Part shown: positions 21,311 through 36,878 of the stretch, piece after piece
How positions within the stretch are numbered: the first letter of the stretch is position 1
How the letters are laid out: each line of letters starts with the position of its first letter
Source of the DNA: Candidatus Latescibacterota bacterium
GTDB taxonomy: Bacteria; Latescibacterota; UBA2968; UBA8231
Reading direction: 5' to 3'
DNA: 64,000 bases
Assembly (NCBI GenBank): GCA_965217585.1
Contig: OZ244561.1
Coordinates: 1,088,001 to 1,152,000 of the forward strand
The notes under the pieces: model-generated
Seen by the model: the letters and a program-made list of their open reading frames with translations, nothing else
Databases searched by the model: none
Told to the model about the DNA's origin: nothing
Translations under genes and position numbers: made by a program

Positions 21311-22144
21311 ATGATCCGTCTCAACCAACAGCAACTCAACTTTTTCGACACCTTCGGCTACCTCGGGCTGCCGGGGTTGATGGCCGACTGCATCGACGAA
21401 ATCATCGACGCCTTTGAGCAGGTCTGGGCCGAGCGCGGCGGAGGCCACGACGGCCAACCGCACGACGACCAACGACGTTCCTGCATCGTGCCTTTCATCG
21501 ATCAACACGAGCGCCTGTGCGCCCTGCTCGACGATCCGCGCATCGAGGGATTACTCGCCAGTCTGCTCGGCGACAACTTCAACTACAGCAGTTCCGACGG
21601 CAACTACTACGCCGGCGACACGCAGTGGCACTCCGACGGCTACCAGAAGGAAGTGCGCCACGTCAAGATCGCCTTCTACCTCGACCACTTAACCCGCGAC
21701 ACCGGCTGCCTGCGCGTGATCCCAGGCAGCCACCGGCTCCGCGATCAGTACGCCGATGCACTCGAAGCAAACGCGCGCCAATCGCAGGAGCAGTGGGGCA
21801 TCTCCGGCGACCAGGTACCCGCCGTCGCGCTGGAGATCGTCCCAGGAGACGTCGTCGTCTTCCAACACAACCTCAAACACGCGGCCTTCGGGGGCGGTGG
21901 CCGCCGCCGCATGTTCACCATCAACTGCATGGTGCGCGTGCCCGACGATCAGCTCGACACCGTCAAACAAGACATCGCCGGGCTGGCCCGCTTCTGGGCG
22001 GAGCGCGCGTACGGCGAGAAGATGATCGCCACGGCGAGTGCCCGTCGCATGGTGCATCTCAAGCAACGCATGGCCAATGACGGCCACCTCAAAGAACTAG
22101 CGGCGAAGGCGCGGGCCGAGATGGCCGAGCCGTCGCGGGGATAG
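21311..22144 (+). CDS. Phytanoyl-CoA dioxygenase (PhyH) family Fe(II)/2-OG dioxygenase
   Basis: FFDTFGYL, WHSDG (HxD), GCLRVIPGSH, PGDVVVF..NLKH, RRM. Confidence 0.9.
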   Translation: MIRLNQQQLNFFDTFGYLGLPGLMADCIDEIIDAFEQVWAERGGGHDGQPHDDQRRSCIVPFIDQHERLCALLDDPRIEGLLASLLGDNFNYSSSDGNYYAGDTQWHSDGYQKEVRHVKIAFYLDHLTRDTGCLRVIPGSHRLRDQYADALEANARQSQEQWGISGDQVPAVALEIVPGDVVVFQHNLKHAAFGGGGRRRMFTINCMVRVPDDQLDTVKQDIAGLARFWAERAYGEKMIATASARRMVHLKQRMANDGHLKELAAKARAEMAEPSRG

Positions 22145-23078
22145 GGCAATCAGGAGCGACCACTACGAATTCAAAATGGGGATCTACCTCGGAGAGCTGC
22201 AGCAGCCATTCGAGCAATCGCTGGCCACGGCGCGCGACCTCGGCGCGCACTACATCTGGTGCGGCATCCACTCCAACAATCGCAGCTTCTACGAGCTTTC
22301 CGACGCCGAGATAGACCAAGCCGCCGAGCAAGTTGCCGCGCACGGTCTCGAGTTTTTCCTGCTCGACGGCGCTGGGTTGTTCAAGACAGTACACCTCGCC
22401 GAGCTTGAGCCGGGCAAGATGCTCGAACACGCCCAATTCAAGGATCATTTCACCAAGCTGGAACGGTCGATGGAGGTTTCAGCCCGCTTGGGAATCGCCG
22501 CGGTCGGCTGCAGCAGCTTCGCTTGGCCGGCCGAGTATACCGGCGGCAAGCCCACTTGGCCGATGCGCTGGGCAACGCGCGGCGGCATCATCTCCGACGG
22601 CGACATGGCAAAGCTCGTCGAAGCATTCTCCATGTTCGCCGATATCGCCGAAAAATACGACGTCGATATCGCCTTCCTGATGATGCAGTGGAATTACGGC
22701 AACACCAGTCGCAACTTCCGCCGCATCGTCGAAGCAGTCGGCTCGCGGCGGTTCAAGGTGCTCTGGTGTCCGGCGGACAACTACAACTGTGGCGAAGTTG
22801 ACAATGCCACCGCCGGATTCGAAAACCTCCGCCCCTACCTGCACGGCGTCCACGCCAAGGACCTGCGCACCATAAACGGCTCAAAGCTCGAATTTGAGTA
22901 CACGCCCATCGGCGAGGGCGACGTCGATTACCCGACGATCCTGCGCAACCTGCGCGACAACCGCTGCGACGTCGTCCTGTCGATTGCCACCCACTTCCTA
23001 CCGGCAAGCGGCTCGCGGCTCGAAGCCATGCAGACGAACTACACCAACATCCGCAGGCTGATTGGCGAGTTGGCGTAG
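22064..23078 (+). repeat. Direct repeat copy 1 (phyH 3' end + epimerase); copy 2 at 28181-29195; partial copy 3 at 31482-31711
   Basis: 1015-bp collinear, gap-free match to 28181-29195 with scattered substitutions; last 230 bp also match 31482-31711. Confidence 0.95.
22176..23078 (+). CDS. Sugar phosphate isomerase/epimerase (xylose isomerase-like TIM barrel), copy 1
   Basis: HGVHAKD, PIGEGDVDYPTIL, VLSIATH; the first ATG of copy 2 reads AGG here. Confidence 0.82.
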   Translation: MGIYLGELQQPFEQSLATARDLGAHYIWCGIHSNNRSFYELSDAEIDQAAEQVAAHGLEFFLLDGAGLFKTVHLAELEPGKMLEHAQFKDHFTKLERSMEVSARLGIAAVGCSSFAWPAEYTGGKPTWPMRWATRGGIISDGDMAKLVEAFSMFADIAEKYDVDIAFLMMQWNYGNTSRNFRRIVEAVGSRRFKVLWCPADNYNCGEVDNATAGFENLRPYLHGVHAKDLRTINGSKLEFEYTPIGEGDVDYPTILRNLRDNRCDVVLSIATHFLPASGSRLEAMQTNYTNIRRLIGELA

Positions 23079-23135
23079 CTTTTATCGCTTCACTTGATAG
23101 GAATGGATTTGACAATACTGTGGAAAGTTTATTTT

Positions 23136-23164
23136 TTGCAAACGGTTGCTTGACCGCTTATATT
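23136..23164 (+). promoter_or_regulatory. Putative sigma70 promoter for the WD40 gene
   Basis: TTGCAA-17bp-TATATT in an AT-rich spacer. Confidence 0.45.
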
Positions 23165-23307
23165 ATAGCTGCAAGGCAACTCGAAGCGGGTGCCCGCCGA
23201 GCTGTCCCAGACGCGTCCGTGCGGACGGGTTCGAGTACTAGCGTCCCAAGCCCGACAGTGCGGAACAGCCGCGCAACAGTCAATCTCCGGCCAAGGAAGG
23301 ATTTCAG

Positions 23308-26300
23308 ATGAAAAAGTCTCGATTGTTCAACCTCATCCTCTTGTTAGTCGCGCTCCTGTTCGTGCAGGACAGCCACGCCCAGACCATCCTCGAAGGGCAT
23401 AGACGAGATGTCACTTCCGTAGCGTTTTCACCCGATGGCACAACCCTCGCTTCCGGGTCAAAGGACAACACGGTCAAGCTGTGGGATGTAGAAACCAGAG
23501 AAATTATCGCCACCCTTGAGGGGCATACGAGTGATGTGACTTCCGTGGCGTTTTCTCCCGATGGGACACTGCTTGCTTCTGGATCAGAGGATGAAACAAT
23601 CAAGCTGTGGGACGTGGCGACGAAAACAAATATTGCCACCCTCGAAGGGCATAGACGAGATGTCACTTCCGTAGCGTTTTCACCCGATGGCACAACCCTC
23701 GCTTCCGCATCGTGGGATGACACAATCAAGCTGTGGGATGTAGAAACCAGAGAAATTATCGCTACCCTTGAGGGGCATACGAGGGATGTGACTTCCGTGG
23801 CGTTTTCTCCCGATGGGACACTGCTTGCTTCCGGGTCAGAGGACAACACGGTCAAGCTGTGGGATGTGGCGACGCATACAAATATTGCCACCCTTGAAGG
23901 GCATACGAGTTATGTGACTTCTGTGGCATTTTCACACGACGGAACCACCCTCGCTTCCGGGTCAAAGGACAACACGGTCAAGCTGTGGGATGTGGCGACG
24001 AAAACAAATACCGCCACTCTTGCTGGACATACGGGTGACGTCCATTCCGTAGCGTTTTCACCCGATGGGACCACCCTCGCTTCCGCAGGGGGAACGTTTG
24101 ATGAAAAGGTCAAGCTGTGGGATGTGGCTGGACAATATTCTTTCGCCACCTTCGAGCATACGGGTGACGTCCATTCCGTGACATTTTCACCCGACGGGAC
24201 CCTGCTCGCTTCCGGGTCAGAGGACAAGACGGTCAAGCTGTGGGATGTCTCAGAATGGCTGGTTCCCCGTCCTTTTAGGTTAGTGATAATCTCTGGTGAT
24301 GACCAGCAAGGTACGCCCGGTGCTGCATTGCCCCACCCTCTAATCGTTGAAGTCAGAGACAAGGACAATAATCCCCTACCAGATGTACAGGTCACCTTTA
24401 CGGTCACTGCTGGTGCAGGAGAGCTCAGCGGGCAGTTCGCGGTTGAGCACGTAACGACCGATGCCAATGGCCGCGCACAACGGACGCTTACGCTTGGTCC
24501 CGGTCCGGGAACACACACCTTTGTTGGGGTATCTGTCCTTGGGGGTGCGTTGCTGGTGACGTTTAATGCGGTAGGCACTGGAACGCCTGATGTCCTGTTT
24601 TTGCGGGACGGCCTTACCGAGGACACCCTTGAAGGGCATACGAGTGATGTGACTTCAGTGGCGTTTTCGCCCTATGGGACACTGCTCGCTTCCGGGTCAG
24701 ATTATGGCACAGTTGTGCTGTGGGACGTGGCGACGAGCACAAACACGGCCACATTTGAAGATAATGTTTATGGCGTCTATTCTATAGCATTTTCACCCAA
24801 TGGTACAACCCTCGCTACCGCGTCTTTATATCGCATCAAGCTGTGGGACGTGGCGACGGGCACAAATATCGCCATCCTTGCAGGAAAATTTTTCGAATCT
24901 GTGGCGTTCTCACCCGATGGGAAGACTCTTGCTTCCGCATCTTGGGATGGGCTCAAGCTGTGGGATGTGGCGACGCGTAAGAGTACCGCCATACTTGAAG
25001 AGACGCCTTATGGTCGTGTCTATTCTATGGCGTTTTCACCCGATGGCACACTCGCCACCGCGTCAGATGAAGGCACGATCAAGCTATGGGACATAGCGAC
25101 TGGAAATTCCGCCACCCTTAAAGGGCATACGGATAATGTCTATTCTGTGGCGTTTTCATCCGATGGCACGCTGCTTGCCTCTGGATCAGAGGATGGCACG
25201 GTCAAGCTGTGGGATGTGGTGAGGCGTACAGATACCGCCACCCTTAAAGGGCATACGCTGGCAGTCACTTCTGTGGCATTTTCACCCAATAGCGCAACCA
25301 TCATATCCGGGTCAGAGGATGGCACGGTCAAGCTGTGGGATGTGGCGACGGGCACAAATACCGCCATACTTGATGGGCATACAGATGAGGTTCTTTCGGT
25401 GGCATTCTCGCCCCATGGGACGATTGTCGCGTCTGGATCAAAGGATAATACGGTCAAACTGTGGGATGTGGCTGAGGCGGTTCAGCCACAGTCTTTCGGG
25501 TTGGTGAAAATCTCAGGCGATGACCAGCAAGGCATACCTGGTGCCACGTTGCCCAACCCCCTAATCGTTGAAGTGAAAGATCAGTACGGTAATCCCTTAC
25601 CAAGTGCTCAAGTCACTTTTACGGTCACCGCCGGTGAGGGGAAGCTCAGTGGTCAGTTCACAGTTGAGCAGGCAACAACCGATGCCAATGGCCGCGCAGA
25701 ACGGACGCTTACGCTTGGTCCCGGTCCGGGAACATACACTCTTGTTAGGGTATCTGATGGGCGCAGGCTGGTGATATTTACTGTTGGGACGCCTGACGTG
25801 CCACGTAGCAGGGACGGTGATTATTGGACATGGCATTTACCCGATGGCGTAATCGCACGTTTGGGTAAAGGTTTGATATTGGATATAGCGTACTCAGCCG
25901 ATGGTACGCGGTTGGCAGTGGGCAGTGGCATCGGTGTTTGGGTCTATAATGCACTCACCGGCGACGAGATCGACTTCCTAACGGAGCATACATCTGCAGT
26001 CCGCAGCGTCGCGTTCAACCCAGATGGCAGCACACTCGCCAGTGGCGAGTGGGACGGTACAATCCATCTGTGGGATGCGGACACAGGACAGCACTTGAAA
26101 ACGATCACAGGGCATACATCTGCAGTCCGCAGCGTCGCGTTCAACCCAGATGGTAGCACACTCGCTAGTGGCAGTCAGGGCGGTACAATCCGTCTGTGGG
26201 ATGCGGACACAGGACAGCACTTGAGAGGGCTCACTACGCAGGATGTATTTGGAAATGCGGAGATCGTCAATAGTATCGCGTTCAGGCCGGATGGCAGCAC

Positions 26301-28119
26301 ACTCGCTAGCGCTGGAAAATCTTTCCTTAGTAGTGTAATCCATCTGTGGGATGCGGACACAGGACGGCATTTGGAAACGATTACAGCGCCTGGGGCAGGC
26401 GGATTCTGGAGTGTCGCATTCAGCCCGGAGGGTAGCAGGCTCGTCAGTCCCAGTCAGGTTCTCCCGGGATTTCGCCGAGGCGACCTCTATCTGTGGGATG
26501 CGGATACAGGACGGCGTTTGGAAAGGTTGGAGCATAGGGATAATTTTTCTGAGCCTACCTATTATTATAGCGCCGCGTTCAGCCCGGAGGGCAACACACT
26601 CGTCAGTGGAGGCGGAAAGTTTTTTGGAGGAGGTAATATTGATCTGTGGGATGCGGACACATGGCAGCACCAGCAGAGGCTCTCAGGACATTCGTGGCCT
26701 GTGCGGAGTGTCGCGTTCAGCCCGGAGGGGAAGAGGTTCGCCAGTGGAGGTGGGGAGGAACTCCTTCTGTGGGATGCTACGGGACTGCCCTTGAACACGG
26801 TCCTTGGGCATAACTGGTTGGGTCGAAGCGTCGCACTTAGCGCGGATGGCACACTCGCCAGTGGCGGTTGGGGCGGCACAATTGATCTGTGGGATGTGGA
26901 TACAGGACAGCCCTTGAAAACGATCACAGGGCATACATCTACAGTCCGCAGCGTCGCGTTCAACCCAGATGGCAGCACACTCGCTAGTGCGGTTGGCCCA
27001 AATCTTCGGCTATGGGATGTGGTCACAGGACAGCATAAAAAGAATCTGATCGAGAATAGATCCTATGGACAAGGCTCCGGCATCGGCATTGGTATTGGTG
27101 GCTTCGGATTCGGTGACACCAGCGGCGGTCTCACTGGTATTAGAGTTGGAGGCATTACCCTCGGTTTTAGTGTCGGCGGTGGTAGTACCTATAGACCTCC
27201 TGATATTTTGTCGGTCGTATTCTCAAGGGATGGCAGTATGCTCGCGGTTGGGGATGAGGCAAATAGAATTAAATTGATAGATGTTGACACGGAACGGGTA
27301 CTGAACACGCTCGAAGGCCATACAGATGATGTCTGGGGCGTCGCATTCAGCCTGGATGGCACGCTGGCTAGTGGGAGCGCAGACGGCACCATTCGTCTGT
27401 GGGATATCACCACCGGACAGTCCCTGAACACGCTCGAAGGCCATATAGATGATGTCTGGGGCGTCGCATTCAGCCTGGATGGCACGCTGGCTAGTGGGAG
27501 CGCAGACGGCACCATTCGTCTGTGGGATGTTATCACTGGACAACTCAAGCAGACGCTTGAAGGGCATACGGATGATGTCCGGAGCGTCGCATTCAGCCCG
27601 GATGGCCACTCGCTCGCCAGTGGAAGTCTGGACCGTACCATTCGTCTGTGGGATGTCTCCACAGGACAGCTCAAGGAGACGCTCGAAGGGCATATGTCTG
27701 AAGTCTGGAGCGTTGCGTTTAGTCGGGATGGCAGCATACTCGCCAGTGGAAGTTTGGACGGCACGATTTTGCTGTGGGACGTGGCCGAATGGACAAATTC
27801 GGGAACTACCGTCGCGGCGAATAAGTTGATCGGCCTGCCGGATGAACTCCAGTTGCAGCAGAACGCGCCCAACCCGTTCAACAGCCAGACGGTCATCTCC
27901 TACTTCCTGCCAAAATCGGGCCCGACGCGCCTAGAAGTGTTTTCAGTGACCGGTCAGCGGGTGGCGGTCTTGCGCCAAGGGCACCAGCAGGCTGGCTACC
28001 ACCAGCTCCACTGGAATGCCCGCGACAGCGCAGGCCGTCCCCTAGCCAGCGGCATTTACCTGTACAGGCTGGTGACAGACGAGGGTATCTTGACGCGCAA
28101 ACTCACCCTGCTACGTTAA
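23308..28119 (+). CDS. Secreted WD40 protein (28 repeats) with two Big_1/invasin-like Ig domains and a C-terminal FlgD/T9SS-CTD-like domain
   Basis: Signal peptide; GH...WD repeats in blocks of 7+7+14; two ISGDDQQG...TTDANGRA domains; QNAPNPFN...SGIYLYRL...TRKLTLLR. Confidence 0.92.
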   Translation: MKKSRLFNLILLLVALLFVQDSHAQTILEGHRRDVTSVAFSPDGTTLASGSKDNTVKLWDVETREIIATLEGHTSDVTSVAFSPDGTLLASGSEDETIKLWDVATKTNIATLEGHRRDVTSVAFSPDGTTLASASWDDTIKLWDVETREIIATLEGHTRDVTSVAFSPDGTLLASGSEDNTVKLWDVATHTNIATLEGHTSYVTSVAFSHDGTTLASGSKDNTVKLWDVATKTNTATLAGHTGDVHSVAFSPDGTTLASAGGTFDEKVKLWDVAGQYSFATFEHTGDVHSVTFSPDGTLLASGSEDKTVKLWDVSEWLVPRPFRLVIISGDDQQGTPGAALPHPLIVEVRDKDNNPLPDVQVTFTVTAGAGELSGQFAVEHVTTDANGRAQRTLTLGPGPGTHTFVGVSVLGGALLVTFNAVGTGTPDVLFLRDGLTEDTLEGHTSDVTSVAFSPYGTLLASGSDYGTVVLWDVATSTNTATFEDNVYGVYSIAFSPNGTTLATASLYRIKLWDVATGTNIAILAGKFFESVAFSPDGKTLASASWDGLKLWDVATRKSTAILEETPYGRVYSMAFSPDGTLATASDEGTIKLWDIATGNSATLKGHTDNVYSVAFSSDGTLLASGSEDGTVKLWDVVRRTDTATLKGHTLAVTSVAFSPNSATIISGSEDGTVKLWDVATGTNTAILDGHTDEVLSVAFSPHGTIVASGSKDNTVKLWDVAEAVQPQSFGLVKISGDDQQGIPGATLPNPLIVEVKDQYGNPLPSAQVTFTVTAGEGKLSGQFTVEQATTDANGRAERTLTLGPGPGTYTLVRVSDGRRLVIFTVGTPDVPRSRDGDYWTWHLPDGVIARLGKGLILDIAYSADGTRLAVGSGIGVWVYNALTGDEIDFLTEHTSAVRSVAFNPDGSTLASGEWDGTIHLWDADTGQHLKTITGHTSAVRSVAFNPDGSTLASGSQGGTIRLWDADTGQHLRGLTTQDVFGNAEIVNSIAFRPDGSTLASAGKSFLSSVIHLWDADTGRHLETITAPGAGGFWSVAFSPEGSRLVSPSQVLPGFRRGDLYLWDADTGRRLERLEHRDNFSEPTYYYSAAFSPEGNTLVSGGGKFFGGGNIDLWDADTWQHQQRLSGHSWPVRSVAFSPEGKRFASGGGEELLLWDATGLPLNTVLGHNWLGRSVALSADGTLASGGWGGTIDLWDVDTGQPLKTITGHTSTVRSVAFNPDGSTLASAVGPNLRLWDVVTGQHKKNLIENRSYGQGSGIGIGIGGFGFGDTSGGLTGIRVGGITLGFSVGGGSTYRPPDILSVVFSRDGSMLAVGDEANRIKLIDVDTERVLNTLEGHTDDVWGVAFSLDGTLASGSADGTIRLWDITTGQSLNTLEGHIDDVWGVAFSLDGTLASGSADGTIRLWDVITGQLKQTLEGHTDDVRSVAFSPDGHSLASGSLDRTIRLWDVSTGQLKETLEGHMSEVWSVAFSRDGSILASGSLDGTILLWDVAEWTNSGTTVAANKLIGLPDELQLQQNAPNPFNSQTVISYFLPKSGPTRLEVFSVTGQRVAVLRQGHQQAGYHQLHWNARDSAGRPLASGIYLYRLVTDEGILTRKLTLLR

Positions 28120-28180
28120 GCGTACCGTGCGCCAAGGTTCAAGTGCTAGCGGCCCGATATAGGCTCGAAAGTACATGGAA

Positions 28181-28261
28181 CAGCGCATGGCCAACGACGG
28201 CCACCTCAAAAAACTAGCGGCAAAGGCGCGGGCCGAGATGCCCGAGCCGTCGCGGGGATAG
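28181..28261 (+). pseudogene. Duplicated 3' end of the phyH gene
   Basis: Encodes QRMANDGHLKKLAAKARAEMPEPSRG*, matching 22064-22144. Confidence 0.9.
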
Positions 28262-28268
28262 GGAAATC

Positions 28269-29195
28269 ATGAGCGACCACTACGAATTCAAGATGGGGAT
28301 CTACCTCGGAGAGCTGCAGCAGCCATTCGAGCAATCGCTGGCCACAGCGCGCGACCTCGGCGCGCACTACATCTGGTGCGGCACCCACTCCGACAATCGC
28401 AGCTTCTACGAGCTTTCCGACGGCGAGATAGACCAAGCCGCCGCGCAGGTCGCTGCACACGGTCTCGAGTTTTTCCTGCTCGACGGCGCGGGGTTGTTCA
28501 AGACAGTGCATCTCGCCGAGCTTGAGCCGGGCAAAATGCTCAAACACGCCCAGTTCAAGGATCATTTCACCAAGCTGGAACGGTCGATGGAGGTTTCGGC
28601 CCGCTTGGGGATCGGCGTGGTCGGCTGCAGCAGCTTCGCCTGGCCGGCCGAGTACACCGGCAGCAAGCCAACCTGGCCGATGCGCTGGGCGACCCGTGGC
28701 GGCATCATCTCCGACGGCGACATGGAAAAGCTCGTCGAGGCGTTCTCCATGTTCGCCGACCTCGCTGAGAAATACGATGTCGATATCGCCTTCCTGATGA
28801 TGCAGTGGAACTACGGCAACACCAGCCGCAACTTCCGCCGCATCGTCGAAGCCGTAGGCTCGCGGCGCTTCAAGGTGCTCTGGTGTCCAGCGGACAACTA
28901 CAACTGCGGCGAAATCGACAACGCCACCGCCGGCTTCGAAAACCTGCGCCCCTACCTGCACGGCGTCCACGCCAAGGACCTGCGCACCCTAAACGGCGCA
29001 AAGCTCGAATTCGAGTACGCGCCCATCGGCGAGGGCCACGTCGATTACCCGACGATCCTGCGCAACCTGCGCGACAACCGCTGTGACGTCGTCCTGTCGA
29101 TCGCCACCCACTTCCTGCCGGCCAGCGGCTCACGGCTCGAAGCCATGCAGACGAACTACGCTAATATCCGCAGGCTGATCGGCGAGTTGGCGTAG
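28269..29195 (+). CDS. Sugar phosphate isomerase/epimerase, copy 2
   Basis: About 16 amino-acid differences from copy 1 by hand count; intact MSDHYEFK start. Confidence 0.85.
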   Translation: MSDHYEFKMGIYLGELQQPFEQSLATARDLGAHYIWCGTHSDNRSFYELSDGEIDQAAAQVAAHGLEFFLLDGAGLFKTVHLAELEPGKMLKHAQFKDHFTKLERSMEVSARLGIGVVGCSSFAWPAEYTGSKPTWPMRWATRGGIISDGDMEKLVEAFSMFADLAEKYDVDIAFLMMQWNYGNTSRNFRRIVEAVGSRRFKVLWCPADNYNCGEIDNATAGFENLRPYLHGVHAKDLRTLNGAKLEFEYAPIGEGHVDYPTILRNLRDNRCDVVLSIATHFLPASGSRLEAMQTNYANIRRLIGELA

Positions 29196-29201
29196 CCTTC
29201 C

Positions 29202-29229
29202 TATCTCGGCGACTCAAGACACCGAGATA
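29202..29229. other. Hairpin between epimerase copy 2 and the next gene
   Basis: TATCTCGG-N12-CCGAGATA. Confidence 0.4.
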
Positions 29230-29244
29230 TAAGGAGTATGACCT

Positions 29245-31437
29245 GTGAAGTATTTGATCGGCTGTTTCATCGGATTGGTGCTGAGCGTGAGCGTCGGCGC
29301 AGAATCTCTCCTTGAAGGCCGGGTGCGGCTGTCGTCTGGGCAGCCAGCCATTGGCGCACAGGTGCGGCTGTTTGACTTGACCGATCTGCGTCGGTTTGTC
29401 GGCACGACCACGGACGAGACTGGGCGTTTCGCACTGCCGCTGCGAGCACTCTCTACGGCAAGGGGCACGGCTCTGCCGACCGACTTTGCGCTGGGGCAGA
29501 ATTACCCCAATCCGTTCAATCCTTCGACTGTCATTCCCTATCAATTGCCGACGGCTGCTCATGTGCGGCTGGAGGTGTTCAATCTGCTGGGGCAGCGTTT
29601 GGCGACGTTAGTGGATGGGGTGCGGTCGGCAGGGGTGCATATGGTGCAATGGGATGCTACGGATGCAGCGGGGCGAGCCGTGGGCGCAGGGGTGTATATC
29701 TACCGGCTGAGCAGCGATGATCAGACGGAGAGTCGGCGGATGGTGTTGGTGGATGGGCAGGCCGGGATTCCAGCGGCTCAGGGGCCGGTGCGGTCGGCGG
29801 TCGAGGATTTAGTGGCAGCGGATGGCTCGGTCTATGGGCTGACTATCTCGGGCGAAGGATTGGTTGCGTATGTGAACCCGGCTTTTCGGATGGGGATTGA
29901 CGGGGCGGACATTGTGATCGAAGAGCACGGCGGCATCCCACGAATGAAGGTGGCCGCGGGCGGGTTATTAGGGGATGTGAACAACGATGGGCAAGTCGAT
30001 ATCTCGGATGTGCTGTACATACTATTATATATTATGGCAGACTCCTCCATTATTCTTCCCAACAACGGCGACATTTCCCTCGGCGATATAAACAACGATG
30101 GCACGGTCGATTTGGCCGACCTCTTGCTCCTCGTCCGCTACACCGACAATCCGTCCGATCCGACGTTGCCGCTGATCGGCGATGATCATGGCGACGCGCT
30201 CTCTGAGGCGACGGAGGTGCCTTTGGGGAGTTCGACTGTTGGCTCGATATCGGAGGGTGATGTGGATTATTTTCGCCTTGAGATGAGCACTGCGGGCGTC
30301 TTGTCGGCTTCTGTGACGAGCAGCATGGGTGCCTACACCTTCATTTTGGATAGCTCTGGCAACATCTTGGCTAGGGATGGCGATTCCGATGCGGGTTTCA
30401 ATTTCCAAATTCTTGTTCCCGTCAGTTCAGGTACTTACTACATCCATGTAGAGGCGTACAGATCGACGACAGACTATACGCTTGATGTGCGGAGTCTCAG
30501 CAGCGCTAGCAACATCGCAACGAACCTCACCCAGAACGCCAGTGACGACTGGGCTCCTGTTTGGTCTCCCGACGGCCAACGCCTCGCCTTCGCGTCCAAT
30601 CGCGATGGCAACACAGAGGTCTATGTCATGGCCGCCGACGGCACCAACCCCACCAACCTCACACAGAACGCCGACACCGACGGGTGGAATCTCGTTTGGT
30701 CCCCCAACGGCCAACGCCTCGCCTTCACGTCTGAGCGCGACGGCAACACGGAGGTCTATGTGATGGCCGCCGACGGTACCGATCCCACCAACCTGACCCA
30801 AAACGCTGGCGACGACTGGGCTCCTGTATGGTCTCCCGACGGCCAGCGCCTCGCCTTCGCGTCCAATCGCGATGGCAACACAGAGGTCTATGTCATGGCT
30901 GCCGACGGCACCGACCCCACCAACCTCACGCAGAACGTCGGTGACGACTGGGCTCCTGTTTGGTCTCCCGACGGCCAACGCCTCGCCTTCGCGTCCAATC
31001 GCGACGGCAACACAGAGGTCTATGTCATGGCTGCCGACGGTACCGACCCCACCAACCTGACCCAAAACGCTGGCGACGACTGGGCTCCTGTTTGGTCTCC
31101 CGACGGCCAGCGCCTCGCCTTCGCGTCCAATCGCGATGGCAACATAGAGGTCTATGTCATGGCTGCCGACGGCACCGACCCCACTAGCCTCACATACCAC
31201 TTCAGCGGTGAGTGGGCTCCTGTATGGTCTCCGGATGGCCAACGCCTCGCCTTCTTGTCCGATCGCGATGGCAACACGGAGGTCTATGTGATGTCCGCCG
31301 ACGGCAGCAACCCAACCAACCTCACGCAGAACGTCGGTGACGACTGGTCTCCTGTATGGTCTCCGGATGGCCAACGCCTCGCCTTCTTGTCCAATCGCGA
31401 CGGCAACACAGAGGTTTATGTCGTAGACGTCGACTAG
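29245..31437 (+). CDS. Secreted protein: carboxypeptidase-regulatory-like + FlgD-like + dockerin/EF-hand + PPC-like + 7 PD40 (TolB-like) repeats
   Basis: Signal peptide, QNYPNPFN, GDVNNDGQVDISD and GDINNDGTVDLAD, DDHGD..GDVDYFR, 7x WSP(D/N)GQRLAF in ~132-bp DNA repeats. Confidence 0.88.
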   Translation: MKYLIGCFIGLVLSVSVGAESLLEGRVRLSSGQPAIGAQVRLFDLTDLRRFVGTTTDETGRFALPLRALSTARGTALPTDFALGQNYPNPFNPSTVIPYQLPTAAHVRLEVFNLLGQRLATLVDGVRSAGVHMVQWDATDAAGRAVGAGVYIYRLSSDDQTESRRMVLVDGQAGIPAAQGPVRSAVEDLVAADGSVYGLTISGEGLVAYVNPAFRMGIDGADIVIEEHGGIPRMKVAAGGLLGDVNNDGQVDISDVLYILLYIMADSSIILPNNGDISLGDINNDGTVDLADLLLLVRYTDNPSDPTLPLIGDDHGDALSEATEVPLGSSTVGSISEGDVDYFRLEMSTAGVLSASVTSSMGAYTFILDSSGNILARDGDSDAGFNFQILVPVSSGTYYIHVEAYRSTTDYTLDVRSLSSASNIATNLTQNASDDWAPVWSPDGQRLAFASNRDGNTEVYVMAADGTNPTNLTQNADTDGWNLVWSPNGQRLAFTSERDGNTEVYVMAADGTDPTNLTQNAGDDWAPVWSPDGQRLAFASNRDGNTEVYVMAADGTDPTNLTQNVGDDWAPVWSPDGQRLAFASNRDGNTEVYVMAADGTDPTNLTQNAGDDWAPVWSPDGQRLAFASNRDGNIEVYVMAADGTDPTSLTYHFSGEWAPVWSPDGQRLAFLSDRDGNTEVYVMSADGSNPTNLTQNVGDDWSPVWSPDGQRLAFLSNRDGNTEVYVVDVD

Positions 31438-31481
31438 CTCAGTCTTCGGGGGCGAGATACGCTTCGGTGCCCTGAATTGCT

Positions 31482-31711
31482 TCCACGCCAAGGACCTGCG
31501 CACCATAAACGGCCCAAAGCTCGAATTCGAGTACGCGCCAATCGGCGAGGGAGACGTGGACTACCCGACGATCCTGCGCAACCTGCGCGACAACCGCTGC
31601 GACGTCGTCCTGTTGATCGCCACTCACTTTCTACCGGCAAGCGGCTCGCGGCTCGAAGCCATGCAGACGGACTACGCCAACATCCGCAGGCTAATCGACG
31701 AGTTGTCGTAG
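31482..31711 (+). pseudogene. Third, 5'-truncated copy of the epimerase gene (last 230 bp)
   Basis: Encodes HAKDLRTINGPKLEFEYAPIGEGDVDYPTILRNL...IRRLIDELS*; downstream TATCGCTTCACT shared with copy 1. Confidence 0.92.
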
Positions 31712-31840
31712 ATTCTATCGCTTCACTCGAAACGCACTTCCGGGCCGACGGATCGCTTCACTGACAACCTATAAGCGCGTTTGGAGTTCGACCAAGCGAC
31801 GGATGCAATCCGGTGCTTATCGCCGTAGCGAAAAAATTTC

Positions 31841-31949: not shown

Positions 31950-32471
31950 ATGCTTCGTGTTGTCCTAACTTCGTTCACGGCGATTGCCCTTATGGGAATG
32001 GCCGGATGCGCGACCCTCTTGAAAGGAAATTCTGCCCCGGTAAGCGTAAACTCAGTTCCGGGAGGAGCTAAGGTCGAGTTTCGATTAACGAGTGGCCGCG
32101 TGCTTGATGGCAATGTAGCTACTCTGCCTGTCGTACAGGCAGGCTTAACCCCGATGAGTGTCAAACTGGCCAAAGGCAAGGAATACGCCGTTACCATCAG
32201 CCTTGAAGGCTATCAGACCGTTACGCGCCTAGTTGCAAAGGGTAGCGTGGAAACGGTGGCATTCTGCAATGGGCTCAATATGGGAGGTTGGGCCATCGAC
32301 TACGTAACCGGTTCGCTGTTCAAACTCGAACCGAATACGATCAACGTATCGCTGCAGAAAGTCACCGCCACGAGTGGAGACGATGAGGTTATCTATGCCT
32401 TCTTGACGATTGTCGACGAGGACGGCAAGCAATCGCATACCGCTGTTGAGATGACGCCCCTAGCTAACTAA
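31950..32471 (+). CDS. PEGA-domain lipoprotein
   Basis: Lipobox MAGC-ATL; VNSVPGGAKV...GLTP...Y.VTISLEGY; AIDYVTG. Confidence 0.75.
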   Translation: MLRVVLTSFTAIALMGMAGCATLLKGNSAPVSVNSVPGGAKVEFRLTSGRVLDGNVATLPVVQAGLTPMSVKLAKGKEYAVTISLEGYQTVTRLVAKGSVETVAFCNGLNMGGWAIDYVTGSLFKLEPNTINVSLQKVTATSGDDEVIYAFLTIVDEDGKQSHTAVEMTPLAN

Positions 32472-32483
32472 AACCCCTTACAA

Positions 32484-32515
32484 GCAAGCAAAGACGCCAA
32501 TGCGTCTTTGCTTGC
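32484..32515. terminator. Perfect 14-bp stem hairpin (terminator-like, no U-tract)
   Basis: GCAAGCAAAGACGC-CAAT-GCGTCTTTGCTTGC directly after the PEGA gene. Confidence 0.55.
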
Positions 32516-32553
32516 CTACAGGAAGGTATTCAGAAGACAGAAAGGCACGACCT

Positions 32554-33372
32554 ATGCTTAGCCGCTCGAAACAAGGAAAGACTACTATCATTCTACGTCT
32601 TATCTTGATTATGTGTCTAACTGCTTCTGTGGCGGTCTCGCAAGTTTTCGCCCAGCAAATGGAAGATGTCGTTTACTTGAAGAATGGAGGGGTCGTTCGC
32701 GGAACTATCGTTGAGCAGATTCCGGGCGAATCGCTAAAGATACAGACGCGAGATGGAAACGTGCTCGTCTTCACGATGGATGAGATTGACAAATTGTCTA
32801 AGGATATACCCAAGGTGCCCAAGGAACCAGTGATGGGGGTTTTTGGTGTCGACATCCCCTCCTCGGCAAGTGCAGATCCTAAAAAAAGTACCGGAATCGG
32901 TTTGAGTCTAGGTGTTATAGTTCAATCAGATGAGAATGTCTTCTTTGGCACTAGAACAGACCTCTATCCCGAAATGACAATCTACCATGAGAACTCCAAC
33001 TTGAGGGTTGGAGGTACTGTAGGTTTTATCTGGCGCTATAGGTTTGGATATAAGACTGACACTTACTGGAATGATGATGTTATCGGGTGGGATGTCGAGT
33101 ATGTTGAGGCGACCATAACAATTATTCCAATCATGACACGTTTGGATGTTCTCATATCTCCAATTTTTTTAGGTATTGGTGTGGGATATTACGCTTCATT
33201 AGAAGATGGCCCACCCTCCCAACCAGCGGTGGCATTACGTTTTGGGGCGGATATTATATCAAATTCAAACATTACAATTATACTTGATGTTCGATACGAG
33301 CATACGTTTGATGAGCCACAGTTGGGGGGGATTATAGCGACTGTCGGCGGAAATCTTAAAATTTTGGATTAG
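32554..33372 (+). CDS. Secreted protein: conserved N-module (EDVVYLKNG..RGTI.EQIPGE) + outer-membrane beta-barrel-like C-terminus; start uncertain (32554 ATG or 32590 ATT)
   Basis: Signal ending SQVFAQQ; alternating amphipathic strands in the C-half. Confidence 0.62.
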   Translation: MLSRSKQGKTTIILRLILIMCLTASVAVSQVFAQQMEDVVYLKNGGVVRGTIVEQIPGESLKIQTRDGNVLVFTMDEIDKLSKDIPKVPKEPVMGVFGVDIPSSASADPKKSTGIGLSLGVIVQSDENVFFGTRTDLYPEMTIYHENSNLRVGGTVGFIWRYRFGYKTDTYWNDDVIGWDVEYVEATITIIPIMTRLDVLISPIFLGIGVGYYASLEDGPPSQPAVALRFGADIISNSNITIILDVRYEHTFDEPQLGGIIATVGGNLKILD

Positions 33373-33393
33373 GTCTTTAACAGGAGTCTATAT

Positions 33394-34785
33394 ATGAAAA
33401 AACTCGCCGCTCTCCTTTTTTGCCTGATAGTCCCACCAGCACTAGCGGACGACAATACTAGCGCCAATAGTCTGTTGGTAGAAGCTGTCCAGCTCATTCA
33501 GGCCGCTGAAGACGAGACAGCGGCGCAGAAAAAACTCAACCTGCTGAAGCAGGCGCACGGCAATCTCCAGACGATTATGGACGACTATCCCTCTACCGAT
33601 CTGGCCGTCAGGCTGATTACGGGACAGCAGATCGGAGATCTTTCGCTGGCGGGTGTCGTCGAGGCGGTTGAGGCGGCGAAAGAGGTGGTTGAGGAGCCGA
33701 AAGAGGCGGTTGAGGAGCCGAAAAGGGAGATATGTTGGGAGTCCCCGACGTACGCATGTGTCATGTCGTTCGCTCTCGTCACGGCAGATTCGATTAAATA
33801 TGCCAGTTTCCGTGCATTGGCGCTTAACGTGATAGCAGTGGCTCAGGCGGAAGCCGGGCAGGTCGATCAAGCTCAGCAGACTTGGAAGCAAGCCAAAGCT
33901 TCGGCAGAGTCGATAGACAATGCTGTTCGTTCTGCGTCGGTGCTCCGTGCGATAGCATCAGCGCAGGCAGAAGCCGGGCAGATCGATCAAGCTCTTTCCC
34001 GGCAGATCGATCAAGCTTCGGCGAAGTCGATTAGCAGGCTCGAAGATCGTGCTGTGGCACTCAGCGCGATAGCAGTGGCTCAGGCGCAAGCTGGGCAGAT
34101 CGATCAAGCCCAGCAGACTTGGAAACAAGCCAAAGCTTCGGCGAAGTCGATTAGCAGGCTCGAAGATCGTGCTGTGGCACTCAGCGCGATAGCAGTGGCT
34201 CAGGCGCAAGCCGGGCAGATCGATCAAGCCCAGCAGACTTGGAAGCAAGCCAAAACTTCGGTGAGGAGGTCGATTCTTCCGCACCCACTCGGCCCACATA
34301 GCAGAATCGAAGATTATGTGGCGGCACTCAACGCAATAGCAGTGTCGCAGGCGCAAGCCGGGCAGATCGATCAAGCTCAGCAGACTTGGAAGCAAGCCAA
34401 AGTTTGGGCGAAGCCGAGAAGGATCAAAGATCCTGTGGCGGCACTCAGCGCGATAGCAGTAGCGCAGGCGCAAGCCGGGCAGATCGATCAAGCTCTTGGC
34501 ACAGTAAAGTCGATTAGCAGGCTCGAAGATCGTGATGTAACACTCAGCGCGATAGCAGTAGCGCAGGCGGAGGCCGGGCAGATTGATCAAGCTCTTGGCA
34601 CGGCAAGGTCGATTAGTAGGCTTGAAGATCGTGCTGCGGTGTTCCGCGCGATAGCAGTAGCGCAGGCGCAAGCCGGGCAATTCAAGCAGGCTCTTGTCAC
34701 AGCAAGGTCGATTGAATTTGTCGATGATCGTGCAATGGCACTTGGCGCAATTGCCGGTGCTCTGGCCCAAGCAGAAGGTCAGTAA
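33394..34785 (+). CDS. Secreted TPR-like alpha-helical repeat protein
   Basis: Signal peptide; about 8 repeats ALSAIAVAQAQAGQIDQA; near-perfect 120-bp tandem at 34015-34254. Confidence 0.8.
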   Translation: MKKLAALLFCLIVPPALADDNTSANSLLVEAVQLIQAAEDETAAQKKLNLLKQAHGNLQTIMDDYPSTDLAVRLITGQQIGDLSLAGVVEAVEAAKEVVEEPKEAVEEPKREICWESPTYACVMSFALVTADSIKYASFRALALNVIAVAQAEAGQVDQAQQTWKQAKASAESIDNAVRSASVLRAIASAQAEAGQIDQALSRQIDQASAKSISRLEDRAVALSAIAVAQAQAGQIDQAQQTWKQAKASAKSISRLEDRAVALSAIAVAQAQAGQIDQAQQTWKQAKTSVRRSILPHPLGPHSRIEDYVAALNAIAVSQAQAGQIDQAQQTWKQAKVWAKPRRIKDPVAALSAIAVAQAQAGQIDQALGTVKSISRLEDRDVTLSAIAVAQAEAGQIDQALGTARSISRLEDRAAVFRAIAVAQAQAGQFKQALVTARSIEFVDDRAMALGAIAGALAQAEGQ

Positions 34786-34797
34786 CCAAAGGTAGCT

Positions 34798-35313
34798 ATG
34801 CAACGCAAGACATTACTTCTTGCAACTTCTGCTCGAAGATTGAATACTTCGCAGCTTTCTCGCGAGCAGGTGTTCGGCATCGTCATTCTGCTCCTAGTCT
34901 TTCTGCCCCGCACTTGTTTATCTAGTGAACATAGCTCCACGCTCGATGCGCCGTGGGAGCCCGAGGATCTGCCAGTAGCTGAATCGGTTAGCTCGACCGA
35001 ACCTCCCCAAGAACCAGCTTTACTTAAACCCCTCGCTCAATCAGCCATTCAGTTCTACCGACAGCGCATAGCGATTGAATCGACCGACCGCTGTCCATTC
35101 CACATTTCGTGTTCGCGCTTCGCCGAAAAGGCCGTTCAGCGGTTCGGCTTTGTCCGCGGAATCGCCCTGTTCATTGACCGACACTTCTTTCGCGAGCACG
35201 TGGGTGCCCGGCAATACTATTCGCTGCGCGAGACTTTGGTGAATAACCGCATTAAGCTGAAGCTAGACGATTCGTTCTATTTAGCTGACAAGCGAGGCGA
35301 AATTGCAGATTAA
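34798..35313 (+). CDS. YidD-like (membrane protein insertion efficiency factor/haemolytic domain) protein with N-terminal extension
   Basis: IQFYRQRI...CPFHISCSRFAEKAVQRFG..RG motif. Confidence 0.68.
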   Translation: MQRKTLLLATSARRLNTSQLSREQVFGIVILLLVFLPRTCLSSEHSSTLDAPWEPEDLPVAESVSSTEPPQEPALLKPLAQSAIQFYRQRIAIESTDRCPFHISCSRFAEKAVQRFGFVRGIALFIDRHFFREHVGARQYYSLRETLVNNRIKLKLDDSFYLADKRGEIAD

Positions 35314-36211
35314 GTTGATCGTCTCGTGCGCGGTGCTGTTGTTCGTGCCTCATGCGTTGCTAGGATACAACACAGCATCCTCCGAAGAGTTGCTTGGTTA
35401 TGCCAATAGTCTCGTAGAACAGCGGGACTATTATCGAGGTATTTCCGTGCTCAAGTACGTCGCCTATTTTGCCGAAGATCAGCAGACGAAGGCCGTGTGT
35501 CTCTTCAAAATCGGCGAGGCATACCAGAAGAGTCGGAAATACAAATCTTCGGTGGAGTATCTAGAGCGATACCTCGATGGCGCGGCGGAGGATACACTCC
35601 GCTATAGGGCCTATATGTATCTCGGCACGAACTATCTGCAACTCAGCCGCTACCATGAAGCGTTAGCGAATTTTTCTCGGGCCGAAGAGATGAAGAATGA
35701 TGGGGCGGGGTTGATGTGGGCGGCTTATGGCACGGTTCAACAGGGAAAATTCGATGCGGCATCTGACGTACTCAGATCAATCATGAGAGATCATACAGGA
35801 GAAGACATTGCGGCCAGTTCACAGGAAATTTTGCAAGAGATCGCAAACTACCAAGCCTCGCGTCGGAGTGCCCGCACTGCGTCAGTACTCTCCGCGTTGT
35901 GTCCAGGCCTCGGTCAACTATATGCCCGCCACTACTACGATGCGGCACAGGCTTTTGTACTGGTCAACAGCTTCGCCTATATGACGTACGCTAGCTTTCG
36001 GCTCGGCGCATTAAACGAACAGAGCCACCTCGTCACCGGCCTCAGCGCCGCGGTGACCGGAATTTTCCACTATGCCAACATACTCGGGGCTGGCCGCACA
36101 GCAGCCTACAGAAACAAGCGCAACCTCGACCGCTCCTTGAAACGGATACGATTTCTGATTCGCAGCAACTCTGGTCTCGCGCCGGGCTTGGGGTTCTCGT
36201 TTTCGCTATGA
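35303..36211 (+). CDS. TPR-repeat protein with C-terminal membrane domain
   Basis: Signal peptide, TPR helices (FKIGEAYQK, YLGTNYLQL), ASVLSALCPGLGQLY + TM segments. Confidence 0.72.
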   Translation: MQIKLIVSCAVLLFVPHALLGYNTASSEELLGYANSLVEQRDYYRGISVLKYVAYFAEDQQTKAVCLFKIGEAYQKSRKYKSSVEYLERYLDGAAEDTLRYRAYMYLGTNYLQLSRYHEALANFSRAEEMKNDGAGLMWAAYGTVQQGKFDAASDVLRSIMRDHTGEDIAASSQEILQEIANYQASRRSARTASVLSALCPGLGQLYARHYYDAAQAFVLVNSFAYMTYASFRLGALNEQSHLVTGLSAAVTGIFHYANILGAGRTAAYRNKRNLDRSLKRIRFLIRSNSGLAPGLGFSFSL

Positions 36212-36849: not shown

Positions 36850-36878
36850 TCCTTTCATTGGCTTAAGAGGCTGTAACT

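Follow-up and report, generated by a model that had tools for sequence, protein, structure and literature searches.

The locus described here raises the question of how three different sets of cargo genes came to be stacked beside one metabolic gene, each behind a copy of that gene or of its 3' end. The locus is in the genome of a Candidatus Latescibacterota bacterium (G000), a single-contig chromosome of 7.32 Mb; other codes of the form G0xx are relatives from the same genus. We analyzed a window of 64,000 nucleotides (contig OZ244561.1, positions 1,088,001 to 1,152,000). Positions are those of the window, and all features described are on the + strand.

Diverged copies of an epimerase gene separate three sets of cargo genes

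Using a repeat search and a three-way alignment, we found direct repeats (copies 1, 2 and 3) at 22064-23097, 28181-29199 and 31471-31730. By BLAST of the whole genome against itself, copies 1 and 2 were 93.2% identical over 1016 nt, copies 1 and 3 were 92.0% identical over 249 nt, and copies 2 and 3 were 91.0% identical over 233 nt. Beyond these three pairwise matches, there were none for the epimerase repeat across the 7.32 Mb. The coordinates and the 91-93% identity agree with the original prediction of collinear, diverged copies that split a WD40 gene, a PD40 gene and a 16-kb island.

The conserved left neighbor of the repeats is a gene for a phyH-family dioxygenase (21311..22144; Pfam PF05721, E 2.7e-17), with orthologs of 89-96% nucleotide identity in 20 relatives. 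Copy 1 (22064..23097) contains the final 81 nt of phyH, an intergenic stretch, a full epimerase gene, and ~19 nt past the stop. The epimerase gene (22176..23078; PF01261, E 1.5e-22) encodes a xylose-isomerase-like TIM barrel (AP_endonuc_2) of 300 aa. Alignment and ORF lengths indicate that an upstream ATG is mutated in this gene and that copy 2 and the relatives use that ATG (308 aa). Copy 2 (28181..29199) starts 81 nt ahead of the phyH stop (equivalent to 22064-22144 in copy 1) and contains this phyH tail followed by a second epimerase gene that is intact (ORF 28269..29195; 308 aa; AP_endonuc_2 by Pfam). Copy 3 (31471..31730) is truncated at its 5' end. It contains the last 241 nt of the epimerase gene, in frame and including the stop, and the ~19-nt post-stop motif.

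The window contains an 11-nt part of the post-stop motif exactly three times, each shortly after an epimerase copy (shuffle p ~0.017). Two are directly after a stop, and the third, an extra copy at 31752..31762, is 41 nt after the stop of copy 3. It is possibly a trace of a further eroded epimerase copy. We looked for further eroded copies in 31731-31829 and rejected them: the 11-nt motif alone recurs there, and an 8-nt likeness to the end of the gene in G019 was not significant (p 0.32).

Copy 1 is joined to the first cargo gene at J1, the region upstream of the WD40 gene (23098..23307). There was no BLAST match to 23098-23380 in the relatives. A promoter-like site is present at 23136-23164; such sites in this region are not above the number expected by chance, and scans for promoters and terminators gave counts not above those of shuffled sequences. 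The first cargo gene (23308..28119) encodes a WD40 protein of 1603 aa whose C-terminal tail is FlgD_ig / T9SS-like by Pfam; its match to Por_Secre_tail was below threshold. Its GC content is 0.54-0.57, compared to ~0.61 in the flanks. At J2 (28120..28180), the 3' flank of the WD40 gene runs into the inside of phyH. The initial ~30 nt of J2 are shared with the WD40 flank of G003, and, apart from indels, G002 has the whole of J2.

Copy 2 is joined (at J3) to a gene for a 730-aa PD40 beta-propeller with CarboxypepD_reg, FlgD_ig, dockerin and PPC matches in Pfam (29245..31437). In G021 and G002, the ortholog directly follows a single epimerase gene; in G001, it comes after a WD40-type gene. At J4 (31438..31470), the 3' flank of the PD40 gene runs into the inside of the epimerase gene; G001 has this flank too, and G021 has part of it. 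Copy 3 is followed by a 16-kb island of lower GC content (31950..48012). Pfam matches of its proteins include PEGA, TPR, YidD-like, DUF5683-like, M8 peptidase-dockerin, collagen-PD40, MotA/ExbB-like, FHA, PP2C and Ser/Thr kinase-ankyrin. Rfam gave no matches in the whole window.

The cargo genes had been predicted to encode secreted repeat proteins. The WD40 and PD40 domains are present and, as read by eye, both proteins have a hydrophobic, signal-like N-terminus, consistent with their being secreted.

The DNA beyond the epimerase gene varies among relatives

We scanned 31 genomes of the genus (including G000) and read the downstream context in 18 relatives with the epimerase gene. We found that the DNA beyond the epimerase stop is hypervariable among these 18. 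Nine (G011, G022, G012, G007, G013, G005, G044, G043 and G041) are empty; that is, the gene found at 48055..48815 in the window is directly after the epimerase gene, no more than 70 nt from its stop. The remaining nine each have different content. As had been proposed, the site is variable with differing cargo, and the architecture is not fixed: there are empty sites and there are single units.

Each type of unit stacked in G000 was found singly in some relative. The epimerase gene is followed by the WD40 type in G003 and G001, by the PD40 gene in G021 and G002, and by the island in G019. Some of these relatives also have second pieces of the repeat. There is a 177-179-nt piece of the epimerase 3' end 14.5 kb downstream in G001, a 176-189-nt piece 9.4 kb downstream in G019, and ~22 nt of the epimerase end immediately after the PD40 stop in G021. 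G002 has a duplicated phyH tail (~85-102 nt).

The variable zone extends from the epimerase stop to the equivalent of window position 71611, ~48 kb in G000. In G046, the epimerase gene is followed by 97 nt and then by the right-hand block that begins there. The zone has the character of a hotspot: its flanks are conserved, and what lies between them, from 97 nt in G046 to ~48 kb in G000, lacks mobility genes. The epimerase gene had been called a landing pad. It is not a special one; the gene is the last conserved one ahead of the ~48-kb variable zone.

The joints are shared to different extents. The joint of copy 1 to the WD40 gene is in none of 20 relatives, the joints of copy 2 are in one (G002), and the island is at the same site in three (G002, G021 and, in part, G019). 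This pattern fits an arrangement in which the newest unit would be the proximal one. Because the copy 2 joints are also in G002, and a PD40-epimerase joint is found in G021, not all of the events took place within G000. The shared joints indicate that blocks were inherited or passed on whole. The original interpretation, repeated homology-driven capture from related strains, is partly supported.

In G002, the first cargo is lodged between phyH and the epimerase gene, indicating that the phyH tail can also serve as an anchor. This cargo gene had only paralog-level matches (~70%) in 18 of the 31 genomes, and the region upstream of it had no second home among them. A 19-nt element that recurs upstream in relatives is absent from the window and is therefore not a shared junction site.

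Origin of the stacked copies

Between copies 1 and 2, there are 61 differences in 900 nt, spread evenly, and 16 in 300 residues, the number (~16) given in the original prediction. The dS is 0.26 and dN/dS is 0.09; purifying selection acts on both full copies, which are intact. In the last 241 nt, there are 14 sites at which copies 1 and 2 differ. Copy 3 matches copy 1 at eight of these, copy 2 at five, and neither at one, a mixture that had also been predicted, and it has six private changes. It differs from copy 1 at 21/241 positions and from copy 2 at 24/241; the nearest full gene is that of G001 (17/241). In a tree of 15 rows, copy 2 grouped with the genes of G001, G019, G005 and G007 (support 98/96), and copy 1 was outside. 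A clade of copies 1 and 2 was rejected in a tree of 20 rows (AU p 0.0255); this rejection is moderate only, and the resolution of gene trees here is low, with 9 of 17 inner branches open. In a phyH tree, G001 was the sister of G000 (99/98). The 61 differences, the dS and the AU test support the earlier claim that the copies are distinct alleles and not fresh duplicates, and the tree of copies and orthologs, proposed then as a check, places copy 2 apart from copy 1.

In our view, it is unlikely that the copies arose by tandem duplication in place. This would require that an ancestor had the duplication, that the copies diverged over a long time, that the duplication was lost from most species, and that other genes took the place of those between the copies. 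G000 has 305 local direct-repeat pairs, diverged local paralogs of 80-93% identity, and diverged tandem copies are therefore not rare in this genome. The intact state of both full copies under purifying selection and the lack of significant breakpoints (see below) are also as expected for such a duplication. However, no second epimerase piece was detectable by BLAST in 19 of 21 gene-bearing relatives, and many independent, precise losses would be required. In addition, the grouping of copy 2 with genes of other species and the rejection of a clade of copies 1 and 2 argue against it, as do the differences in cargo, each type being found behind a single epimerase gene in other species.

There was no integrase in view, as originally claimed, and no transposase; Pfam scans of the locus and profile counts in the genome agree on this. 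We scanned 29 ORFs or parts of ORFs from 18409 to 56439 and found no match to recombinase families among them. PF00589 has five matches in G000; the one closest to the locus, at C1:1232595, is ~97 kb away. Three of these tyrosine recombinases are common to all five genomes searched (G000, G001, G002, G019 and G021), none of which has PF00589 at the locus, and two are additional in G000. The genome has no match to PF00239 (serine recombinase). It has four matches to rve and 62 to DDE_Tnp_1, none within the window, and the window has no tRNA. Of the features of an integron, there was no integrase, and no inverted repeat of at least 40 nt in 18000-52000. A nearby integrase with a short att core, which had been named as one of the observations that would speak against the proposal, was not found at the locus.

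Integration at the 3' end of a gene is known from phage 21 and e14 in icd and from tandem accretion at tRNA genes, and cis-mobilizable elements that lack an integrase are a known kind of insertion at gene 3' ends. The locus is like these in its order of gene, cargo and displaced 3' fragment, and in having repeated units in the same orientation. It is unlike them in having no recombinase, no constant core or boundary, and one repeat that consists of a gene plus part of its neighbor. The islands could be decayed site-specific elements (integrative islands, or islands without an integrase that moved in trans) that targeted the epimerase 3' end and carried their own copy of that end, with later loss of the integrase genes and erosion of the fragments. 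The order of gene, cargo and 3' fragment would be expected in that case. All of the insertions begin ~17-25 nt past the epimerase stop, the fragments in G001 and G019 start no more than ~6 nt apart, which could hint at a preferred site, and G000 has its two extra tyrosine recombinases. We think that this origin is quite unlikely. The 5' ends of the pieces are widely different (22064 and 22838 in G000; equivalent to ~22907, ~22913 and ~23057 in relatives), and we saw no common core at the cargo ends by eye. Copy 2, a whole gene plus 81 nt of its neighbor, is far longer than any attachment site. PF00589 is absent from the locus in all five cargo-bearing genomes, serine recombinases are absent from G000, and the cargo genes are members of large chromosomal paralog families, not of mobile-element gene sets.

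We used Logan short-read contigs (X9, X10, X11 and X13, from 14 public runs listed) as read support. Contigs with no differences bridge 23007-23417, from copy 1 to the region upstream of the WD40 gene (X9, X10 and X11), 29093-29405, from copy 2 to the PD40 gene (X9), and 31640-33500, from copy 3 to the island (X9 and X10). Among the joints listed in these short-read contigs, there were no skips of 6117, 2516 or 8633 nt, as would result from loop-out, and no circle or deletion joints. The joints that are listed lie within the WD40 repeats and look like repeat artefacts or artefacts from other organisms. Eight runs hold 0.05-0.12 of the words, and four are labelled as sponge metagenome.

An assembly artefact, in which three strain variants were strung together by the assembler, is highly improbable: the bridged joints (J1, J3 and J5) would exist in separate strains too, no bridging piece was among those listed for J2 (28120-28180) or J4 (31438-31470), and marker-gene contamination is 6.89%, but J2 and J3 are collinear in the separate closed genome of another species (G002), a PD40-to-epimerase-end joint is present in G021, J2 and J4 are at internal, non-homologous points where strain collapse makes no such joints, contamination is 5-13% by the same measure in the relatives and is thus a trait of the lineage, and the chromosome is a single 7.32-Mb contig.

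Taking these results together, we consider it fairly likely that alternative alleles of the locus were stacked by homology-anchored recombination, in which illegitimate joints formed and older copies and their cargo were shunted distally. The phyH-epimerase pair would form the conserved border, on the left, of a recombination hotspot in this genus, at which species carry alternative alleles: an epimerase gene with nothing, with a WD40 gene, with a PD40 gene, or with the island. In the lineage of G000, incoming DNA from a related species would pair by homology in or upstream of phyH-epimerase, and its far end would join illegitimately inside the resident phyH or epimerase gene. Every event would add a unit of epimerase plus cargo beside phyH, and the older copy, its 5' end cut at an arbitrary place, would be shoved downstream with its own cargo. 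We infer that copy 3 and the island would be oldest, followed by copy 2 and the PD40 gene, with copy 1 and the WD40 gene the newest. After that, ordinary homologous recombination could carry finished blocks from one species to another, and no dedicated recombinase would be needed.

The same outcome could be reached by a circle that enters by one homologous crossover, as in the original prediction. We scanned copies 1 and 2 for crossovers against G001, G011, G013, G003 and G019, and the maximal chi-square was not significant (p 0.21-0.55, 500 permutations). The single-crossover circle is one of two homology-driven routes to this topology, and the scan favors neither it nor the linear route. A site-by-site comparison with 18 relatives gave an apparent switch near 22510, which was not significant. 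The DNA uptake families ComEC and DprA are present in G000; they are also in 10 and 11 of 14 control genomes and so say little.

Related systems and other islands

Two other islands in G000 have the same scar. A Druantia-like island (DruA and a DEAD/MZB helicase) is between two full copies of an NAD-epimerase gene that are 92.6% identical. Among the rows listed, this gene is single in most relatives, and among the matches listed, none extends over the Druantia-like cargo in any relative. In addition, an island with type I R-M, Piwi, SIR2 and AIPR genes is between the 3' end of a protease gene and a 94.3% identical copy of the last 245 nt of that gene. G002 is empty at this site.

In the minimal mobile elements of Neisseria, content flanked by core genes is exchanged by homologous recombination. 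The hotspot concept is reportedly that of Oliveira et al. 2017. The locus shares with such hotspots its conserved flanks, lineage-specific content, lack of mobility genes and patchy distribution across the tree. Models for these hotspots have double crossovers in both flanks, which leave no duplicated flank. In contrast, the left flank here is duplicated at illegitimate joints.

Published models for displacement arrays give the same topology. For rhs loci, Jackson 2009 (PMC2935791) proposes that C-terminal displacement occurs by homologous recombination via a circular intermediate, with the old tip shunted downstream and kept. In both cases, there is an intact gene followed by 5'-truncated pieces of varying length with different DNA after each, and arrays are shared by related strains (PMC2935791), as some of the joints here are shared by relatives. 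The variable part of rhs, as described there, is a C-terminal toxin tip and its immunity gene, whereas here a complete metabolic gene is the anchor and the cargo consists of separate, unrelated genes of up to 16 kb; and core fragments within an rhs locus are reported there to be identical, whereas the copies here are 7-9% different. The locus has the intact gene and truncated copies of a displacement array, and its downstream units are on the intact gene in other species. It does not have a toxic C-terminal tip with immunity: the anchor gene encodes a whole TIM-barrel enzyme and ends in its own stop, and the WD40, PD40 and other cargo genes are separate from it.

The effector-immunity arrays of the Vibrio cholerae T6SS are described by Kirchberger 2017 (PMC5361080) as arising by homology-facilitated illegitimate recombination followed by homologous spread. 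There, as proposed here, new modules from other strains are set beside a conserved upstream anchor with old genes pushed 3'; as here, alleles in the same array do not cluster in trees, and no integrase is involved. In that account, only the immunity genes accumulate and the old effector disappears, an outcome with a clear selective explanation. The organism is also cultured and naturally transformable (PMC5361080), whereas the lineage here is uncultured. Unlike the V. cholerae arrays, the locus here has retained its cargo genes whole, and the anchor is present in a second intact copy.

Accounts of genomic islands mostly rest on integrases or transposases. At this well-preserved locus, in closed genomes from a lineage that is uncultured, additions of 2 to 16 kb were made with no such enzyme in view. 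The diverged copy of the border gene left by each addition can be used for ordering events and seeking donors, and the ~20 closed genomes of the genus are well suited to estimates of how frequent such events are.

Because two defense islands in G000 have the same scar, the process may explain a real share of accessory-gene gain. It is a tentative suggestion that integrase-free, homology-anchored stacking is a general means of acquiring accessory genes in this genus, in which alternative alleles of a border gene, with their cargo, would each be added in front of the last, like an integron without an integrase. If so, the diverged border copies would be a datable record of donors, recombination between copies could release circles of cargo to sister species, and the process would load the genome with genes for surface repeat proteins and with defense islands (Druantia-like; R-M with Piwi/SIR2). 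WD40, PD40, TPR, ankyrin and collagen-like repeat proteins are often discussed as host-interaction factors, and the accessory gain explained in this way may include such proteins.

Three copies of an epimerase segment and their cargo

We found three direct copies of one segment in the window (C1:1088001-1152000 of the source genome, G000, which is 7.32 Mb on a single contig). The copies were defined by a repeat search and a three-way alignment. Copy 1 (22064-23097) contains the 3'-terminal 81 nt of a PhyH-family gene (phyH), an intergenic stretch, a 300-aa gene that is xylose-isomerase-like with a TIM barrel (Pfam AP_endonuc_2; here called the epimerase gene), and ~19 nt past its stop. Copy 2 (28181-29199) has the same span with the gene intact. 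Copy 3 (31471-31730) contains only the last 241 nt of the epimerase gene and the post-stop motif. In a genome self-comparison, copies 1 and 2 were 93.2% identical, copies 1 and 3 92.0%, and copies 2 and 3 91.0%, and there was no fourth copy of the segment in the rest of the G000 genome. Copies 1 and 2 flank a gene for a 1603-aa WD40 protein with a FlgD_ig/secretion-tail-like C-terminus; copies 2 and 3 flank a gene for a 730-aa PD40-dockerin protein. Copy 3 is followed by a 16-kb island of lower GC that encodes PEGA, TPR, DUF5683-like, M8 peptidase-dockerin, collagen-PD40, MotA/ExbB-like, FHA, PP2C and kinase-ankyrin proteins. The sequence details of the original prediction were all correct: copies 1 and 2 differ at 16 amino acids, for example, and copy 3 agrees with copy 1 at some sites and with copy 2 at others.

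The upstream ATG used by copy 2 and by relatives (308-aa form) is lost in copy 1 (22150-22178 compared to 28267-28295), and the start of the first epimerase gene would fall 8 codons later, giving 300 aa. Within the island, 39622-42459 encodes a 945-aa protein that joins collagen-like Gly-X-Y repeats (~1.7 kb, with a period of 9 nt) to a PD40 propeller; long ORFs on the other strand of this gene are artefacts of the repeats. At its distal end (43735-48012), the island encodes MotA/ExbB-like, FHA, PP2C phosphatase and Ser/Thr kinase proteins, the last with C-terminal ankyrin repeats. The fucosyltransferase-like and MotA/ExbB-like genes of this region have counterparts in G021 that match G000 better at ~C1:5065231-5070566 than in the island. 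An insert 5' of phyH (20712-21278) contains a ribbon-helix-helix antitoxin-like ORF and, judged by eye, the apparent start of a broken toxin gene. It carries a 207-nt hairpin-rich repeat (21061-21267) that recurs at three further sites of the genome (98.5-99% identity). Word depths across this insert were 7,600-15,200 in each of four public runs.

Copies 1 and 2 show evenly distributed differences (7-16 per 150 nt). With dS of 0.26 and dN/dS of 0.09, both copies diverged while they were working genes. Trees were weakly resolved apart from the following groupings. With 15 rows, copy 2 grouped with the genes of G001, G019, G005 and G007 (98/96 support) and copy 1 fell outside; with 20 rows, constraining copies 1 and 2 to a clade cost 15.8 log-likelihood units (AU p 0.0255). 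In the phyH tree, G001 was sister to G000 (99/98 support). Copy 3 differs from copy 1 at 21 of 241 positions and from copy 2 at 24 of 241. It is nearest to the G001 gene (17/241 differences), has 6 private changes, and its constraint is relaxed (dN/dS 0.20-0.27). The even spread, the low dN/dS and the cost of the joint clade agree with the original prediction, and constitute moderate evidence, not proof, that the copies are distinct alleles and not fresh duplicates.

A variable zone in related genomes

We scanned 31 genomes of the genus, including G000, and found the epimerase gene in 21 relatives at 89% nucleotide identity or higher. Its downstream context was read in 18 of these, and that of phyH in two relatives without the epimerase gene (G042 and G004); G008, G014 and G020 were excluded, being on short contigs. 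Nine of the 18 (G011, G022, G012, G007, G013, G005, G044, G043 and G041) had an "empty" state, with the gene at window ~48055-48072 at most 70 nt past the epimerase stop. Each of the other nine had a different arrangement. G010 has a 1.9-kb insert, G009 skips to window-equivalent 57070, G046 has 97 nt and then window-equivalent 71611, and G045 has DNA with matches elsewhere in G000. In G003, a WD40-type gene precedes window gene ~48054. PD40, further genes and the distal half of the island follow in G021, part of the island in G019, and a WD40-type gene, PD40 and more in G001. In G002 the order is phyH, a different gene for a secreted protein that shares the C-terminal tail, a repeated phyH tail, the epimerase gene, PD40 and the island.

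Based on these arrangements, the variable zone begins at the epimerase stop and ends at window-equivalent 71611, where there is a conserved gene in convergent orientation, and the locus falls within the definition of a hotspot flanked by core genes. The epimerase gene had been called a "landing pad". Cargo does border it, but the contexts in relatives indicate that it is the left border of the variable zone and not a special target.

Additional pieces of border genes were present in four relatives: epimerase 3' ends of 177-179 nt (G001, 14.5 kb downstream), 176-189 nt (G019, 9.4 kb downstream) and ~22 nt (G021), and a phyH tail of ~85-102 nt (G002). The 5' ends of such pieces are not constant (22064, 22838, ~22907, ~22913 and ~23057).

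In G042 and G004 (loci L047 and L048), phyH is kept, the epimerase gene is absent, and homologs of window 56455 onward lie ~0.8-0.9 kb past phyH. In G001 and G021 (loci L027 and L036), several cargo genes of the locus are preceded by a conserved element (at least 19 nt) that runs on into a conserved leader. Allowing up to one mismatch, the element had 12 matches in G001 (4 at the locus), 6 in G021 (5 at the locus) and 2 in G000 (C1:4753350 and 4605413), with none in the window. One possibility is a promoter or leader that serves a regulon of secreted proteins.

Possible origin of the locus

The anatomy is of the displacement-array type: an intact gene, then copies truncated at the 5' end to different lengths, each leading into DNA of its own. 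Among the proposals of Jackson et al. for rhs are circles that are excised and inserted by homologous recombination (PMC2935791). Those of Kirchberger et al. for Vibrio T6SS arrays include homology-facilitated illegitimate recombination, with a homologous anchor at one end and an illegitimate joint at the other, and the spread of finished arrays by homologous recombination (PMC5361080).

We lean toward homology-driven, enzyme-free stacking at this locus. An ancestor with the epimerase gene and the island would have gained an epimerase-PD40 unit, its far end joined within the resident gene at 22838 to give copy 3. Later, an epimerase-WD40 unit would have arrived and been joined within the resident phyH at 22064, leaving copy 2 whole. 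None of the 20 relatives has the joint between copy 1 and WD40, one (G002) has the joints around copy 2, and three have the island. This pattern fits the newest unit being proximal. Because joints are common to relatives, blocks were inherited or moved as wholes. The repeated capture originally predicted is favored as homology-driven stacking, but not with every step in G000. A breakpoint scan of copies 1 and 2 was not significant (p 0.21-0.55) and favored neither a circular nor a linear intermediate.

An old duplication in place is an unlikely source of the copies: it agrees with a paralog-rich genome, but would take a large number of precise losses and is at odds with the trees.

We found no match to recombinase families (Pfam) among the ORFs scanned at window positions 18409-56439, and no tRNA in the window. 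PF00589 is present at five places in G000, the nearest ~97 kb from the locus, and is absent from the locus in G001, G002, G019 and G021; PF00239 had no match anywhere in the G000 genome. None of the 4 rve and 62 DDE_Tnp_1 matches in G000 is within the window. There were no inverted repeats of at least 40 nt in 18000-52000, and by eye no common core was seen at the cargo ends. The empty ORF scans and the distance to PF00589 uphold the earlier statement that no integrase is in view. Islands once carried by an integrase that has decayed would have the same order of parts. We doubt this explanation, since boundaries vary, the 1-kb repeat takes in the tail of the neighboring gene, and recombinases are absent from the locus in five genomes.

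Short-read contigs assembled from public runs (Logan) bridged the joints of copy 1 to the region upstream of WD40 (23007-23417), copy 2 to PD40 (29093-29405) and copy 3 to the island (31640-33500), with 0 differences in runs X9, X10 and X11 and 8 in X13 across the first joint. These three would exist in separate strains too; the telling joints are those from the WD40 end to the phyH tail and from the PD40 end into the epimerase gene, and neither had a bridge among the read pieces listed. That the order is an assembly artefact would be compatible with this pattern but is very unlikely: the closed genome G002, which is independent and from another species, is collinear across the joints on both sides of copy 2, and the ~22-nt epimerase end in G021 is immediately 3' of its PD40 gene.

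Similar loci in G000 and known systems

We compared the G000 genome to itself for low-copy direct repeats (86-98.5% identity, 150-1200 nt, 1.5-40 kb spacing). Nineteen pairs passed. By our own reading of the pair table, in at least 10 of the 19 one copy ends within ~50 nt of the stop of a long ORF and the other is downstream. Five pairs were inspected more closely, and two of these (L138 and L135) were compared with relatives.

In L138 (C1:4036000-4055900), a gene for a 232-aa NAD-dependent epimerase is present in two full copies (92.6% identity) that bracket ~12 kb. The cargo ORFs span 10.8 kb (DruA, a 1884-aa DEAD/MZB helicase and two ORFs without a family) and are a Druantia-like defence island; no recombinase was found in the four scanned. 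Among the matches listed for 30 relatives, the gene is single copy in most and the cargo is not covered by any match. G013 has its own 160-nt fragment of this gene, 99% identical to the G000 copy. L135 (C1:5729000-5748000) has a 10.9-kb block between the 3' end of a gene for a 1132-aa M6-peptidase/beta-helix protease and a 94.3% identical copy of the final 245 nt of that gene. The block encodes type I R-M (HsdM/S/R), a Piwi-domain protein adjoining a SIR2-like one, and AIPR, with no recombinase in the six ORFs scanned. The site is empty in G002 and rearranged in other relatives. Another locus, L137, contains a transposase and could be of a different kind than L138 and L135.

In how it works, the locus resembles displacement arrays of the Rhs and T6SS types, but it does not belong to either family. 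Here a whole metabolic gene serves as the anchor, the cargo consists of independent genes, and the copies differ by 7-9%, whereas identical core fragments are reported for rhs. A limited search (Latescibacter* with sponge or eukaryotic-like proteins; homology-facilitated illegitimate recombination with genomic islands) found no published description of the locus or of such stacking in the phylum. The mechanism has precedents, and the locus is a clear, well-preserved natural example that provides good comparative material.
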